Virus record (IMG/VR): IMGVR_UViG_2617270967_000016
Span: 1-8,449 of that record
Direction: 5' to 3' (one strand)
Source of the DNA: a virus
Taxonomy: Duplodnaviria; Heunggongvirae; Uroviricota; Caudoviricetes
DNA: 8,449 bases
Below are positions 2,916 through 7,832 of the stretch, in pieces; the stretch's first letter is position 1, and every line of letters begins with the position of its first letter. The notes under the pieces were generated by a model, which ran no database searches, was not told the DNA's origin, and was given only the letters and a program-made list of their open reading frames with translations. Both the position numbers and the translations under genes were made by a program.

Positions 2916-2991
2916 GGCCCTTTAGCTCAGTGGTGAGAGCGAGCGACTCATAATCGCCAGGTCGCTGGTTCAAATCCAGCAAGGGCCACCA
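2916..2991 (+). tRNA. ileZ: tRNA-Ile2 (anticodon CAU; would score as Met by anticodon alone)
   Basis: 76-nt cloverleaf: acceptor GGCCCTT/AAGGGCC, D-arm GCTC...GAGC, anticodon loop CTCATAA, T-loop TTCAAAT, encoded CCA; resembles E. coli ileX and Stx-phage ileZ. Confidence 0.8.
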
Positions 2992-2998
2992 TCACATA

Positions 2999-3075
2999 CC
3001 GCCATTAGCTCATCAGGAAAGAGCGCCAGCCTTCGAAGCTGGTTGCGCGGAGTTCGGGTCCCCGAAGGCGGTTCA
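2999..3075 (+). tRNA. argN: tRNA-Arg (UCG)-like, degenerate (possible pseudo-tRNA)
   Basis: D-arm GCTC/GAGC and anticodon arm CCAGC-CTTCGAA-GCTGG fold well, but the acceptor and T stems each carry a mismatch, the T-loop is TTCGGGT (no A58), and the 3' end is TCA not CCA. Confidence 0.45.
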
Positions 3076-3088
3076 TTATCTGTATCCT

Positions 3089-3165
3089 GCGTTGTTAGCT
3101 CAGCCGGACAGAGCAATTGCCTTCTAAGCAATCGGTCACTGGTTCGAATCCAGTACAACGCGCCA
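3089..3165 (+). tRNA. argO: tRNA-Arg (anticodon UCU, reads AGA/AGG)
   Basis: 77-nt cloverleaf: acceptor GCGTTGT/ACAACGC, anticodon arm ATTGC-CTTCTAA-GCAAT, T-arm ACTGG-TTCGAAT-CCAGT, discriminator G, encoded CCA. Confidence 0.8.
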
Positions 3166-3179
3166 CACTTATTTTCCCT

Positions 3180-3205
3180 GGCTCGCTTTTGCGGGCCTTT
3201 TTTTT
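3180..3205 (+). terminator. rho-independent terminator after the tRNA cluster
   Basis: Stem ggctcgc (3180-3186) / gcgggcc (3191-3197) with one G-U pair, loop tttt, then T8 (3198-3205). Confidence 0.6.
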
Positions 3206-3402
3206 AAATGTCTCACAATTCAGACGGTTGACAGTTGTCTGTTTTGCGGGGAGTTTGTTAAAAGAAACTGGCATGGTGAATCCCCCTGTGCGGAGGGGCA
3301 ATCAGCGAGTAGGTATATGGGATAATCGCGGATTCAGGTGCTGGTACTGAATTCACCGGGAGGCACCCGGCACCATGCAATGGCACATAGCGCCACTCTC
3401 CA

Positions 3403-3426
3403 GCCCCTCTCCGGAGGGGCTTTCTT
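3403..3426 (+). terminator. rho-independent terminator-like hairpin
   Basis: gcccctc (3403-3409), loop tccg, gaggggc (3414-3420), then TTTCTT. Confidence 0.45.
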
Positions 3427-3430
3427 ATGG

Positions 3431-3460
3431 ACAAAAAAGCCCGCGCAGGGAGACGCGGGC
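3431..3460 (-). terminator. minus-strand terminator-like hairpin (convergent with 3403-3426)
   Basis: gcccgcg (3439-3445) / cgcgggc (3454-3460), 8-nt loop; A6 at 3433-3438 on + gives a U-tract after the hairpin on the minus strand. Confidence 0.4.
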
Positions 3461-3653
3461 GGCAAGGAATAAACAACAAAACGTGAAGTAATATTTCAGC
3501 TGGCGAATAATATCCGACAGTAATCACTCTGCGCAATAGTGCGGCCTTTTTCGTATTGCGGGCTGTTGTCTCTCTTCTGCCATTGTCCTGTAACTTCCGG
3601 ACTTCAGCCCGCTCCTCATTTTACTCACAATATTATCCCGGCCGGGAGGATTC

Positions 3654-3947
3654 ATGGCATTTAAACACTATGATGTTGTCAGGGCGGCGTCGCCGTCAGA
3701 CCTTGCGGAAAAGCTGACACACAAACTGAAAGAGGGCTGGCAGCCATATGGCGGACCGGTTGCCATTACGCCGTACACACTGATGCAGGCGGTGGCTATT
3801 GAAGGAGATCCACAGGTCGGCCCTTCATCTGAGCCGGACTGGTTCTACGTGGTTGTGCTTGCCGGACAGTCCAACGGCATGGCCTACGGTGAAGGGCTTC
3901 CGTTATGGCTGCATTCAGGATGCGGACGCACAGCGCGAAGGTATTAA
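3654..3947 (+). pseudogene. 5' fragment of a NanS-p-like sialate O-acetylesterase (N-terminal domain plus start of SGNH/SASA domain); homology ends near 3902
   Basis: ATG 3654 with GGGAGG RBS; about 70-aa N-terminal domain then VVVLAGQSNGMAYGEG, a block-I GQSN motif; the ORF then reads out of frame through capsid-gene sequence to a stop at 3947. Confidence 0.55.
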
Positions 3948-4077
3948 CGCCTCTGCCCGCTACCCGAAAAACTGGGTGACCACCGGCGATCCGGCGCGTG
4001 AGTTCACCATGATTCAGTCAGCACCGCTGATGCTGCTGGCTGATCCTGATGCGTTCGTGTCCGTACAACTGGCGTAA
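3901..4077 (+). pseudogene. E: 3' remnant of major capsid protein gene E (last 57 codons)
   Basis: Translation YGCIQDADAQREGINASARYPKNWVTTGDPAREFTMIQSAPLMLLADPDAFVSVQLA matches the recalled lambda gpE C-terminus almost exactly; no upstream E sequence; different frame from the esterase fragment. Confidence 0.8.
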
Positions 4078-4079
4078 TC

Positions 4080-4106
4080 ATGGCCCTTCGGGGCCATTTT
4101 CTCTCT
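4080..4106 (+). promoter_or_regulatory. stem-loop with UUCG tetraloop and U-rich tail between the E remnant and FI
   Basis: atggccc (4080-4086), loop ttcg, gggccat (4091-4097), then TTTCTCTCT; likely mRNA-stabilising or partial-terminator structure. Confidence 0.35.
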
Positions 4107-4118
4107 GTGGAGGAGTCC

Positions 4119-4514
4119 ATGACGAAAGATGAACTGATTGCCCGTCTTCAGGTGCTGGGTGAGCAACTGAACCGTGATGTCAGCCTGACGGGGACGAAAG
4201 AAGAACTGGTGCTCCGTGTGGCAGAGCTGGAAGAGGAGCTTGATGACACGGATGACGCTGCCGGTCAGGACACATCTGTCAGCCCGGAAAATGCGCTGAC
4301 CGGACATGAAAATGAGGTGGTATCAGCGCAGCCGGATACCGTGATTGATACGGCTGCTCTGGTCACGGTCGTGGCACTGGTGACGCTGCATACTGATGCA
4401 CTTCACGCCACGCGGGATGACACTGTGGCATTTGTGCTGCCGGGAACGGCGTTCCGTGTCTCTGCCGGTGTGGCAGCTGAAATGACAGAGCGCGGCCTGG
4501 CCAGAATGCAATAA
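4119..4514 (+). CDS. FI: DNA-packaging protein FI
   Basis: ATG 4119 after GGAGGAG; MTKDELIARLQVLGEQLNRDVSLTGTKEEL...VAAEMTERGLARMQ matches recalled lambda gpFI over its whole length. The track start at 4080 is an upstream extension. Confidence 0.88.
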   Translation: MTKDELIARLQVLGEQLNRDVSLTGTKEELVLRVAELEEELDDTDDAAGQDTSVSPENALTGHENEVVSAQPDTVIDTAALVTVVALVTLHTDALHATRDDTVAFVLPGTAFRVSAGVAAEMTERGLARMQ

Positions 4515-4525
4515 CGGGAGGCGCT

Positions 4526-4996
4526 GTGGCTGATTTCGATAACCTGTTCGATGCTGCCATTGCCCGCGCCGATGAAACGATACGCGGGTACATGGGAACG
4601 TCAGCCACCATGACATCCGGTGAGCAGTCCGGCGCAGTAATACGTGGTGTTTTTGATGACCCTGAAAATATCAGCTATGCCGGACAGGGCGTGCGCGTTG
4701 AAGGCTCCAGCCCGTCCCTGTTTGTCCGGACTGATGATGTGCGGCAACTGCGGCGTGGAGACACGCTGACCATCGGTGAGGAAAACTTCTGGATAGACCG
4801 GGTTTCGCCGGATGATGGTGGAAGCTGTTATCTCTGGCTCAACCGTGGGCAACCACGGGGATTTACAACGATTTGGCCGCCGCCTCAGCCTGTATGTGAA
4901 CACGGCAGCGGAAGCCATTCGCGCCCTGTCGATGCAGATGCCGGGCTTTCGCCTTCAGATGAACGAAGGCTGGTACCAGATACGTATTGCCGGTGA
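4526..4996 (+). CDS. FII: head-tail joining protein FII with its C-terminus replaced by read-through into the I region (disrupted)
   Basis: GGGAGG RBS; first about 105 aa match recalled lambda gpFII (MADFDNLFDAAIARADETIRGYMGTSAT...SPDDGGSC.LWL); after about 4850 the frame continues out of frame through I-homologous DNA to 4996. Confidence 0.7.
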   Translation: MADFDNLFDAAIARADETIRGYMGTSATMTSGEQSGAVIRGVFDDPENISYAGQGVRVEGSSPSLFVRTDDVRQLRRGDTLTIGEENFWIDRVSPDDGGSCYLWLNRGQPRGFTTIWPPPQPVCEHGSGSHSRPVDADAGLSPSDERRLVPDTYCR

Positions 4997-5477
4997 AGAC
5001 ACGGCACCGGAGGTGGTGTACGCCCGCCTTCACGAACAGCTGGGTGAGGGAACGGTCATCCACATTGTGCCGCGACTGGCCGGGGCCGGAAAGGGTGGAC
5101 TGCAGATTGTGTTGGGGGCGGCAGCCATCGTGGGCTCTTTCTTCACGGCCGGAGGCTCGATGGCGTTATGGGGTACAGCCCTGAGTGCCGGTGGTTTTTC
5201 TGCCACCACGATGCTGTTTTCACTGGGTGCCAGCATGATACTGGGCGGTGTGGCCCAGATGCTGGCCCCGAAGGCAAAAACACCGGATTACCGCGCAACG
5301 GATAACGGCAGACAGAACACGTACTTTTCCTCGCTGGATAACATGATTGCCCAGGGGAACCCGATGCCGGTGCCTTACGGGGAAATGCTGGTTGGCTCCC
5401 GCCGTATATCCCAGGACATCAGCACCCGTGATGAAGGCGGGGGCGGAAAGGTCGTGGTTATCGGGCGGCAGGGGTAA
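4812..5477 (+). CDS. I: tail assembly protein I, native N-terminus missing (first 16 codons derived from FII DNA)
   Basis: From GDLQRFGRR onward matches recalled lambda gpI to the C-terminus (…NTYFSSLDNM.AQGN…YGEM.VGSR…VVVIGR); the in-frame ATG at 4812 lies in FII sequence. Confidence 0.78.
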   Translation: MMVEAVISGSTVGNHGDLQRFGRRLSLYVNTAAEAIRALSMQMPGFRLQMNEGWYQIRIAGEDTAPEVVYARLHEQLGEGTVIHIVPRLAGAGKGGLQIVLGAAAIVGSFFTAGGSMALWGTALSAGGFSATTMLFSLGASMILGGVAQMLAPKAKTPDYRATDNGRQNTYFSSLDNMIAQGNPMPVPYGEMLVGSRRISQDISTRDEGGGGKVVVIGRQG

Positions 5478-5482
5478 AAAGA

Positions 5483-5581
5483 ATAAAAAAATCCCGCAGT
5501 GATCGCGGACAGGAACTGCGGGAGAGTTACGAAGATTAAGTGTAAGGAATTATTCTTATATCACGACAAAAAAATTAACGC
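5483..5581 (-). ncRNA. candidate small RNA (about 100 nt) between I and J
   Basis: Delimited on the minus strand by a near-consensus promoter (5588-5615) and a hairpin plus U-tract terminator (5486-5520); no start-codon-initiated ORF inside; this intergenic block is absent between I and J in lambda. Confidence 0.3.
5486..5520 (-). terminator. minus-strand rho-independent terminator
   Basis: tcccgcag (5491-5498) / ctgcggga (5513-5520), 14-nt loop; on the minus strand followed by ATTTTTTTATTCTTTTT. Confidence 0.45.
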
Positions 5582-5587
5582 AGAGAA

Positions 5588-5615
5588 ATTATACGCGCCA
5601 CGGTCAGTTTGTGAA
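5588..5615 (-). promoter_or_regulatory. sigma70-type promoter on the minus strand
   Basis: Minus-strand -35 TTCACA (+ coords 5610-5615), 16-bp spacer, -10 TATAAT (+ coords 5588-5593, perfect); AT-rich upstream; predicted start near 5581. Confidence 0.45.
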
Positions 5616-5690
5616 AATGTGAAGATATTCAGAATTTTTATGCCATTACCGGTTTTAACCAACAGGATTATCGGTGGGCATGAAAGAAAA

Positions 5691-5723
5691 CCCCGGTATC
5701 TGCTGATACCGGGGTTTCTCTTT
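5691..5723. terminator. bidirectional rho-independent terminator
   Basis: Perfect 10-bp stem ccccggtatc (5691-5700) / gataccgggg (5705-5714), loop tgct; TTTCTCTTT downstream and GAAAGAAAA upstream. Confidence 0.6.
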
Positions 5724-5820
5724 AGCATGGCAGAAATGTGTTTCATGCTTTTCGGGCGAAGGATATCCGACTTCTGTACGGAATGGCAAGTGGCGGTTAA
5801 TTTATTCAGGGGAAGGCTGT

Positions 5821-6621
5821 ATGGGAAAAGGTGGCGGTAAGGCACACACGCCTCGTGAGGCGAAAGACAATCTCAAATCCACGCAGATGATGAGCGTGAT
5901 TGATGCGATTGGTGAGGGACCGATAGAAGGCCCGGTGAAAAGCCTGCAGAGTATTCTGGTGAACAAAACCCCGCTGACGGACACGGACGGTAATCCCGTG
6001 ATACACGGTGTGACCGCGGTCTGGCGTGCCGGGGAGCAGGAGCAGACACCACCGGAAGGCTTTGAGTCCTCCGGCTCTGAAACTGTACTGGGTGTCGAAG
6101 TGACCAGGGCAAAACCGGTAACACGCACCATTACGTCAGCGAACATTGACCGCCTGCGGGTGACCTTCGGGGTGCAGTCACTGGTGGAGACCACGTCAAA
6201 GGGTGACCGTAATCCGTCCTCTGTCCGTCTGCTGATTCAGTTACAGCGTAACGGTAACTGGGTGACAGAAAAGGATGTCACCATTAACGGCAAGACCACC
6301 TCACAGTTCCTGGCCTCGGTGATTCTGGATAATCTGCCTCCCCGCCCCTTTAACATCCGGATGGTCAGGGAGACGGCGGACAGCACCACGGACCAGCTGC
6401 AGAACAGAACGCTGTGGTCGTCATACACCGAAATCATCGATGTGAAACAGTGCTACCCGAACACGGCCATTGTGGGGATGCAGGTGGATGCGGAGCAGTT
6501 TGGTGGTCAGCAGATGACGGTGAACTACCATAGCCAGGTAACACAGAGTTATGACAGCCCGCCGGTTCTGGTGGGCTTTTTTGTGGGGGGAATATGTCAG
6601 TACAGATTTCAGGTGTGCTGA
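5821..6621 (+). pseudogene. J: tail tip/host-specificity protein J, N-terminal about 238 codons only
   Basis: RBS AGGGGAAGG; MGKGGGKAHTPREAKDNLKSTQ...PPRPFNIRM...TLWSSYTEIIDVKQCYPNTA matches the recalled lambda gpJ N-terminus; homology ends near 6533 and the ORF stops at 6621; full J is over 1100 aa. Confidence 0.8.
6557..6582 (+). terminator. terminator-like hairpin immediately upstream of the stf start
   Basis: gcccgcc (6557-6563) / ggtgggc (6570-6576) with one G-U pair, loop ggttct, then T6 (6577-6582). Confidence 0.4.
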
Positions 6622-7832
6622 AGGATGGTACAGGAAAACCGGTACCGGACTGCACCATAGAGCTGAAAGCCACGCGAACGAGTGAGACGGTGATAGTCAC
6701 CACGGTGGCAGAGCACCAGCCAGGCGAAACGGGCAGTTACAGCATGCAGGTTGAGCCGGGGCGTTATCGTGTGACCTTGTGCGTGGAAGGTCGTCAGCCG
6801 GCATGCGCCGGCGAGATTGATGTCATGGCCGACGACGAACCGGGCACCCTGAATGCCTTTCTGCTCCGTGAAACGGATGCAGCGTATTATCCTGATGCAC
6901 TGAAGAAGCTGGAAGCGGCGGCGGATGAGGCTGTGCGCAGGGCGCGAGAAGCTGCTGAGAAAGCCGAAACTGCCGTGGGGCCACAGGGACTGAAAGGCGA
7001 CACCGGAGCAACTGGTCCACAGGGACAGAAGGGGGACAAGGGCGATACAGGCCCGGCAGGGCCACCGGGGCCGAAAGGGGATAAAGGTGACAAGGGCGAT
7101 AAGGGGGATACAGGTCCGAAAGGTGAGCAGGGCGATCCGGGCGGACCACAGGGACCGAAGGGCGACAAGGGGGATACAGGCCCGGCAGGGCTTCAGGGGC
7201 CAAAAGGGGATACGGGAGCCGCAGGCCCGGCAGGGCCTCAGGGGCCAAAAGGGGATACGGGAGCCGCAGGTCAGGCAGGGCCTCAGGGGCCAAAAGGAGA
7301 TACGGGAGCCGCAGGTCCGGCAGGACCTCAGGGGCCAAAGGGAGATACGGGAGCTGCAGGCCCGGCAGGACCTCAGGGGCCAAAAGGAGATACGGGAGCC
7401 GCAGGTCCGGCAGGACCTCAGGGGCCAAAGGGAGATACGGGAGCTGCAGGCCCGGCAGGACCACAGGGGCCAAAAGGGGATACGGGAGCCGCAGGTCAGG
7501 CAGGGCCTCAGGGGCCAAAAGGAGATACGGGAGCCGCAGGTCCGGCAGGACCTCAGGGACCGTCAGGAAGTCCTGACAGCGGACTGTTTGGTGTCGGTTC
7601 TTTTGTCCTTGCGGCATATTATGCGACGAGTTATTCGGGGGATATGGCACCGGGCTCAGCCATTGCCGGCTCATCACTGTCTGCATGTTGCCTTTCGAAT
7701 GGTACTCCCCTGGTTGCTTCCGGTAATGTGGGGGAGACCCGTTTACCGGGCACGTGGCGTGCATGTGGTCCGATGCTATGGACATCATCTCCGGGTATCA
7801 GACAGGCAGGATTATTTCAGCGCATATCATAG
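6594..7832 (+). CDS. stf: side tail fibre protein with a collagen-like Gly-X-Y region
   Basis: 412-aa ORF; N-terminus [17 protein letters not shown] resembles recalled lambda Stf ([17 protein letters not shown]...); residues about 129-327 are uninterrupted Gly-X-Y triplets; 85-aa Cys-containing non-collagen C-terminus. Confidence 0.8.
7180..7560 (+). repeat. tandem array of a 45-bp unit (about 8 copies) encoding [15 protein letters not shown]
   Basis: Near-identical 45-bp units with only synonymous or single-residue variation (PAG/QAG); preceded by more degenerate [12 protein letters not shown] triplets from about 6978. Confidence 0.85.

Follow-up and report, generated by a model that had tools for sequence, protein, structure and literature searches.

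DLP12, Rac, and Qin are cryptic lambdoid prophages of Escherichia coli, which have lost structural modules by internal deletions and in which scattered late genes are kept. They differ from the prophage considered here in the element itself, in its integration site and in its junctions. Short-homology illegitimate recombination in E. coli comprises RecA-independent deletions between repeats of a few base pairs as well as alternative end-joining. In the late operon of phage lambda (FII to I, NC_001416 7612–15444), the genes FI, FII, I, and J are homologous to those of the locus described below, the last 100 nt or so of K are shared with gene I, and the ATG start of I is preceded by GAGAGG. Lambda differs from the locus in that all its tail genes are present and in that its FII sequence diverges after position 4839.

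Intact prophages closer to the locus than lambda are also available. One of them, a lambdoid prophage here called L013, occupies the ykgJ/potB site in E. coli S1-CAM-01-A (NZ_CP145714.1), and the closest relative with an intact tail region, L033, is contig k141_87357 of ENA ERZ27318481. Together with a third relative, L001, they have the same gene order as the family of the locus, A-W-B-C-D-E-FI-FII...K-I-J-lom-stf-DUF4376, but unlike the locus they have the full Z-U-V-G-T-H-M-L-K block (about 6.97 kb), a complete FII of 117 aa and a gene I with its own ATG and Shine-Dalgarno sequence. In the following, we describe how this block was lost, and what the loss means for the reading of the genes on its two sides.

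The Locus and Its Relatives

The analysed stretch of 8,449 nucleotides (the window, from whose first letter positions are counted) is the late region of a lambda-like prophage. It is 100% identical to positions 162–8610 of contig JNRW01000053.1 in assembly GCA_000704885.1 (L007). In that contig the prophage is followed on its 3′ side by ykgJ, potB, potA, pepT, roxA, and phoQ, which are 99.4% identical to E. coli chromosomes, and a prophage end is found at the ykgJ/potB site in 656 complete E. coli genomes. The host would be E. coli (or Shigella), judged only from the 99.4% identity of the potA/potB/pepT flank to E. coli. The features of the window are the following.

1–291: ybcO
288–650: rusA
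858–1253: Q
1817–2866: N6 DNA methylase gene
2916–3165: three tRNAs (Met-CAT, Arg-TCG, Arg-TCT)
3654 to about 3903: nanS-p/DUF1737 esterase gene, 5′ stub
3904–4077, + strand: major capsid gene E, 3′ stub, with which the retained head genes begin on the left (lambda, L001, and L013 are homologous from 3904)
4119–4514, + strand: FI, gene of the DNA-packaging protein FI, intact, 131 aa (PF14000, 167 bits)
4526–4856, + strand: FII′, head-tail joining gene with 110 native codons out of the original 117 (PF05354, 70 bits)
4526–4996, + strand: FII′ read-through ORF, 156 aa, with K/I DNA read in the third frame after the join (called in six NCBI assemblies)
4812–5477, + strand: chimeric ORF, 221 aa, with 15 out-of-frame codons from FII DNA followed by I codons 21 onward
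4841–4860, no strand: adjacent 10-mer pair pointed out in the first-pass annotation (4841–4856 is native FII sequence)
4854–4856: CAC breakpoint (three-way alignments against L001, L002, L013, and L033)
4854–4899, + strand: K stub (C40 peptidase gene), last 14 codons and TGA at 4897–4899
4857–5477, + strand: I′, tail tip assembly gene I, 5′-truncated (PF06805 positions 9–83 only; translations of relatives; PDB homologues)
5821–6532, + strand: J′, first 237 codons of tail tip gene J (PF24801; homology to all intact relatives stops at 6532)
6594–7832: side tail fibre gene (stf) with collagen-like repeats
to 8449: DUF4376 gene

The head-completion genes FI and FII are adjacent and in lambda order, with 95% identity to lambda over 3904–4839, while I and J follow downstream, collinear with the relatives and 97–99.8% identical to intact loci over 4854–6532. 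The genes stf and DUF4376 are intact in the window. The E stub is called in L007 as a 62-aa product with PF03864, and FI is called as 131 aa in L007–L012, with a Shine-Dalgarno duplex of −9.3 kcal/mol.

Four observations concern other parts of the window and its relatives. First, the arrangement Q-methylase-tRNA-nanS-p (window 3166–3653, break at 3207/3208) is that of Stx2 phages, with 94% identity up to 3206; 1,332 bp with stx2A and stx2B in LC567841.1 are absent from the window, and the flanks resume at 3209 with an identity of only 79%, so that the window may represent either an stx-free allele or a loss. Second, between E and FI, at 4080–4097, there is a GC-rich hairpin with a T-rich run behind it (ATGGCCCTTCGGGGCCAT TTTCTCTCTG); it is terminator-like by a consensus scan and occurs also in L033. 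Third, stf contains at 7083–7558 collagen-like GXY tandem repeats (a 45-bp unit repeated 8.5 times with 92% match, plus a 36-bp array), the copy number of which varies among otherwise identical contigs, giving products of 397, 412, more than 427, and 442 aa, some of them cut by contig ends. Fourth, in L008/L032 (GCA_000704905.1, 5900–12356) ykgJ is followed by an integrase gene, yfdC, mlaA, and fadL (the argW region) in place of potB, and the part from the 3′ end of stf to ykgJ is 96.6% identical to the window, compared with 99.8% upstream; these differences suggest that two prophages recombined with each other, or underwent an inversion, inside the repeat/tfa region.

The Join between FII and K/I

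The first-pass annotation had noticed a sharp switch from FII to I homology within 4835–4865. The switch is confirmed, and when the window is aligned with relatives closer than lambda, its position can be given to the base. In three-way alignments with L001, L002, L013, and L033 the join is exact: there is a 3-bp overlap, CAC, at 4854–4856, with mismatches on both sides and no filler. FII homology to L001, L013, and L033 extends to 4856, i.e., FII′ matches their FII through ...CAACCAC, and K/I homology begins at 4854 in L001, L002, L013, L016–L025, and L033. The FII parent reads ...CTCAACCGTGGGCAACCAC up to the join and CCGCTGTTAACC after it, the K/I parent reads ...CATCTGCCTTCAC up to the join and GGGGATTTACAACG after it, and the window reads ...CTCAACCGTGGGCAACCACGGGGATTTACAACG. 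The CAC triplet is the only sequence common to the two parents at the join, and a single copy of it is kept. In a megablast comparison with lambda, FII homology stops at 4839 and I homology is not detected; the earlier impression of a transition spread over about 20 bp arose because lambda FII homology ends already at this point.

Both parental flanks are present in L001, L013, and L033, where they are collinear, in the same orientation and part of single intact prophages, in the case of L013 at the same chromosomal potB/ykgJ site. The flanks of the junction are 96.7–99.8% identical to these three relatives, the highest value being that of L033, with 99.82% for the right flank and over I–J′. 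In the three intact prophages the breakpoints are 6,965–6,970 bp apart, which means that about 6.97 kb is absent from the window. That the tail module between FII and I was lost by a deletion at short homology, as had been proposed, is supported by this collinearity of flanks lying about 6.97 kb apart.

One breakpoint precedes the FII stop by 23 nt, the other the K stop by 45 nt. The last seven codons and the stop of FII are gone, together with all of Z, U, V, G, T, H, M, and L and most of K, so that nothing remains of the tail genes between FII and I except a 46-nt stub of K. The match to the intact loci begins 42 nt upstream of the annotated I start, within the K coding sequence. The statement that the whole module from Z to K had been removed thus holds for Z to L, but the last 14 codons of K with their TGA survive at 4854–4899. 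Because this stub of 14 codons and a stop is out of frame with FII, it has the character of a relic, and it would be unexpected in a native arrangement.

Distribution and Age of the Junction

The 60-mer over the join (TGTTATCTCTGGCTCAACCGTGGGCAACCACGGGGATTTACAACGATTTGGCCGCCGCCT) is identical in L004–L012 and L021. The carriers derive from three IMG/VR contigs and no fewer than seven NCBI draft assemblies, a set in which some genomes are probably represented more than once, and the 2,629-bp core of the carriers (3904–6532) differs by at most one mismatch. Megablast searches gave no junction-spanning match in 5,426 complete E. coli genomes (query 4300–5500) or in 50,697 phage records (query 3600–5600), the exact junction 33-mer is absent from the GTDB species representatives, and the junction 21-mer has no match in metagenome contigs. 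One match to the 21-mer, in a Desulfobacterales MAG, was rejected as due to chance, the flanks being without similarity. A native, contiguous FII–I sequence with tail genes located elsewhere, which would have spoken against a deletion, was looked for and found neither among the phage records nor in the complete E. coli genomes. Since the identical junction occurs in near-identical carriers only and is absent from complete genomes and phage records, the FII/K deletion appears to be one recent event in a single lineage.

The head genes from A to E are kept upstream of the same scar in L006, L009–L012, and L021. From their presence beside the scar in these sister contigs it follows that the tail deletion preceded the head deletion of the window.

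Other Junctions in the Prophage Family

This head deletion has its junction at 3654–3904, where the 5′ stub of nanS-p/DUF1737, about 250 nt long, runs into the 3′ end of E. Relative to L001 about 12.3 kb is removed, containing the lysis genes, Nu1, A, W, B, C, D, and most of E. At the join, CTTCC is followed by GTTATGGCTGC, and the bases GT(TAT) match a terminase-A stub in L005; the junction looks like a second deletion layered on an older A′/E′ junction. The fusion ORF across it (3654–3947) has no exact protein on record. L033, in which the tail genes are intact, has a different head deletion of its own (566–573), which brought a lysozyme gene into nearly direct contact with the 3′ end of E, ahead of FI.

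A third deletion junction is located at 6531–6533 (TA). Here J breaks off after codon 237, and the sequence resumes about 60 nt upstream of stf, with a loss of about 3.43 kb relative to L013 (the rest of J, and lom).

Contig L005 and the window have endpoints in common (L005 303–307 and 2931–2933, window 3902–3904 and 6530–6532): they share the E endpoint with different left partners and the last base of J with different right partners. As the endpoints are common but the partners differ, neither of the two types can be ancestral to the other. Such reuse of endpoints is not expected for random illegitimate recombination.

Mechanism of the Deletion

We consider it highly probable that a single ancestral deletion of about 6.97 kb, made by illegitimate recombination at the 3-bp CAC microhomology, left its scar at 4854–4856. 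The deletion would have occurred in the late operon of a lambda-like prophage that is inserted beside ykgJ/potB in the chromosome of E. coli (or Shigella), and the ends would have been joined at CAC independently of extended homology. In E. coli, the likeliest routes to such a join would be replication slippage, template switching, or end-joining of a resected break. We infer that the event was independent of RecA, as we infer the molecular pathway, because the overlaps are short and because no IS, transposase or recombinase gene lies at the join.

Like short-homology deletions in E. coli in general, the event has a microhomology of 2–4 bp that is kept once, lacks filler and entails a loss on the kilobase scale, although a single 3-bp overlap is within the range of chance: its probability at one random join is about 0.05. 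Taken singly, the FII/K junction is therefore only suggestive of microhomology use. To this can be added the overlaps at the other junctions of the prophage family:

FII/K junction, window 4854–4856: CAC
J′/stf-upstream junction, window 6531–6532: TA
A′/E′ junction, L005: TAT
W-B junction, L006: CATG
J′/7848 junction, L005: ATA
nanS-p′/A′ junction, window: none

The summed overlap over these six junctions is 15 bp, which under random joining has a probability of P = 4 × 10−4.

A deletion mediated by an insertion sequence, with subsequent clean loss of the element, is also conceivable; the ORFs and gene calls of the window show neither an insertion sequence nor a transposase at the join or close to it. 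A related possibility is that the ends are not chosen by random microhomology joining but are fixed by a recurrent break site, a hot spot or a transient mobile element. Such a mechanism would account for the sister contigs, where later deletions start or end at, or within 2–5 nt of, earlier junctions (the E and J endpoints of L005 and the window). The FII/K junction, by contrast, is known in one form only, without any reuse of the site, and no recombinase site or inverted repeat is seen at the join. For the FII/K deletion we therefore regard a fixed-end mechanism as improbable. It is likewise improbable, and offered as a speculation, that the decay of the prophage as a whole is non-random, in the sense that old scars or sequences adjacent to them would be preferred sites of breakage or template switching, with the FII/K scar as the first in the cascade.

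The Start of Gene I

How much of gene I was lost through the deletion depends on where the gene begins. Both PGAP and the gene caller of the collection place its start at a GTG overlapping the K stop, at 4896 in the window, which gives a product of 193 aa, and the same GTG is called in the relatives (L001 20772, L002 12043, L013 13250). The I start of lambda precedes the K stop by 103 nt. L001 and L002 have an open I frame beginning with an ATG that precedes the GTG by 99 nt (226 aa), and the product from this ATG, MATTNAFCLASPPLA(H/R)ICLHGDLQRFGRR, aligns with lambda's MAATHTLPLASPGMARICLYGDLQRFGRR. The upstream ATG has a conserved GAGAGG Shine-Dalgarno sequence with duplex energies of −8.5 and −9.3 kcal/mol, and the GTG is without one (−1.5 kcal/mol).

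The protein families give the same picture. The Pfam profile Lambda_tail_I (PF06805) begins at lambda residue 14, upstream of the GTG, and it is covered from 2 to 83 with 100 bits by lambda I, as compared with 9 to 83 with 54.3 bits by the window ORF, which still exceeds the gathering cut-off of 23.8. The PDB homologues 9l9p and 25vf begin 7–8 residues before a strand of the form I-x-L-y-G. In lambda, L001, L002, 9l9p, and 25vf this first strand lies upstream of the breakpoint, and in the window profile positions 1–8 are missing. We conclude from these comparisons of sequence that the true I start, its ribosome-binding site and the first 19 codons are deleted in the window, and that the GTG call is probably a systematic start-site miscall in the annotation of E. 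coli prophages. The earlier claim that the I start had been removed is accordingly right for the lambda-type ATG, but not for the GTG of the annotation, which is retained at 4896. The choice of GTG hides the truncation of I in the window.

Fate of FII′ and I′

In the FII′ read-through ORF, 110 native residues are followed by 46 unrelated ones, which replace the last seven. On the other side of the join, the first-pass annotation had suggested that an in-frame ATG at 4812 could drive a chimeric I protein. The ATG is in frame and the ORF is open over 221 aa, its codon 15 (His/CAC) coinciding with a native I codon, but it has no Shine-Dalgarno sequence (duplex −3.2 kcal/mol, against −8.5 and −9.3 for native I starts). 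The candidate I′ starts at 4812, 4815, 4818, and 4896 all lie between −1.5 and −3.3 kcal/mol, the native ATG being deleted together with its GAGAGG. A promoter scan found no promoter-like site on the + strand in 3500–5900, and thus none local to FII′ or I′; a terminator-like hairpin with a weak T tail is found at 4803–4823. Any transcription of the two reading frames would come from read-through of the Q-dependent late transcript.

The partners of gpI are missing as well. In the virion, gpI residues 135–223 form a trimeric plug that is held by gpJ and caps gpH (PMC10721106). Of the partner proteins, gpH, gpL, and gpK are deleted in the window, and of gpJ only 237 codons remain. We predict from sequence that a working chimeric I protein is unlikely, because there is no Shine-Dalgarno sequence, the first conserved strand is absent, H is deleted, and J is cut at codon 237. 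As markers of expression we name the 46-residue tail of FII′ and the peptide MMVEAVISGSTVGNH-GDLQRF.

It could be argued that the arrangement is native, e.g., a head-only or satellite-like element in which the chimeric I or the extended FII′ has a role, given that both reading frames (4812–5477 and 4526–4996) are open, that FI, stf, and the DUF4376 gene are intact, and that Q is kept with the upstream region of the late operon, which makes read-through transcription conceivable. With neither a Shine-Dalgarno sequence nor a local promoter-like site for the chimeric frame, a truncated N-terminal domain of gpI, and the two proteins that hold its plug inside the tail tip lost or cut, with the arrangement absent from all phage records and complete genomes examined, and with carriers that keep losing neighbouring genes, a functional arrangement of this kind is very unlikely. 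The element that the deletion left behind can no longer build a tail; it would be inert, without expression or function, and FII′, K′, and I′ are best treated as pseudogenes.

The Two 10-mers at the Join

Two similar 10-mers at the join had originally been read as consistent with a deletion by short-homology recombination, for which one 10-mer would have to come from each parental end. Two such 10-mers are indeed present: AACCGTGGGC (4841–4850) and AACCACGGGG (4851–4860) adjoin each other at the breakpoint and match in seven of ten positions. This is, however, no better than chance would give, since the window contains 57 adjacent 10-mer pairs with at least 7/10 matches, where first-order Markov simulations give 36 ± 12, and a pair of this kind lies no further than 10 bp, on either side, from 5.6% of arbitrary positions.

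When a deletion takes place between direct repeats, a single hybrid copy remains and not two copies side by side. In the window both copies stand next to each other, and 16 of the 20 bases of the pair, i.e., the first 10-mer and six nucleotides of the second, belong to the FII parent: in L001, L002, L013, and L033, AACCGTGGGCAACCAC forms part of the native FII gene without interruption. The K/I parent reads CATCTGCCTTCACGGGG, which contains no motif like the 10-mers and has only CAC in common with the FII parent. The 10-mers thus fail as the recombining homology, and a deletion between AACCGTGGGC and AACCACGGGG must be regarded as extremely improbable; judged from the parental alignments, the repeat is a coincidence and the actual homology is 3 bp.

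Very remote, too, is the idea that two contigs were misjoined in short-read assembly. The carriers are without exception draft assemblies, and several lambdoid prophages are present in the source genome, but a 3-bp overlap is too short to seed an assembler join, and the same 60-mer recurs in separate assemblies with differing flanking states, which makes an artefact hardly credible.

Implications

The junction between FII and K/I is an ordinary scar of prophage decay, a phenomenon that is already known, and its importance beyond annotation is small. In annotation, FII′, K′, and I′ should be entered as pseudogenes of a defective prophage, and the locus should not be described as encoding a 156-aa "head-tail joining protein" or a 193-aa "tail assembly protein". 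The near-identical contigs, with their further stepwise deletions, document on a small scale how fast a prophage is reduced in nature, and they could serve in studies of deletion mechanisms.
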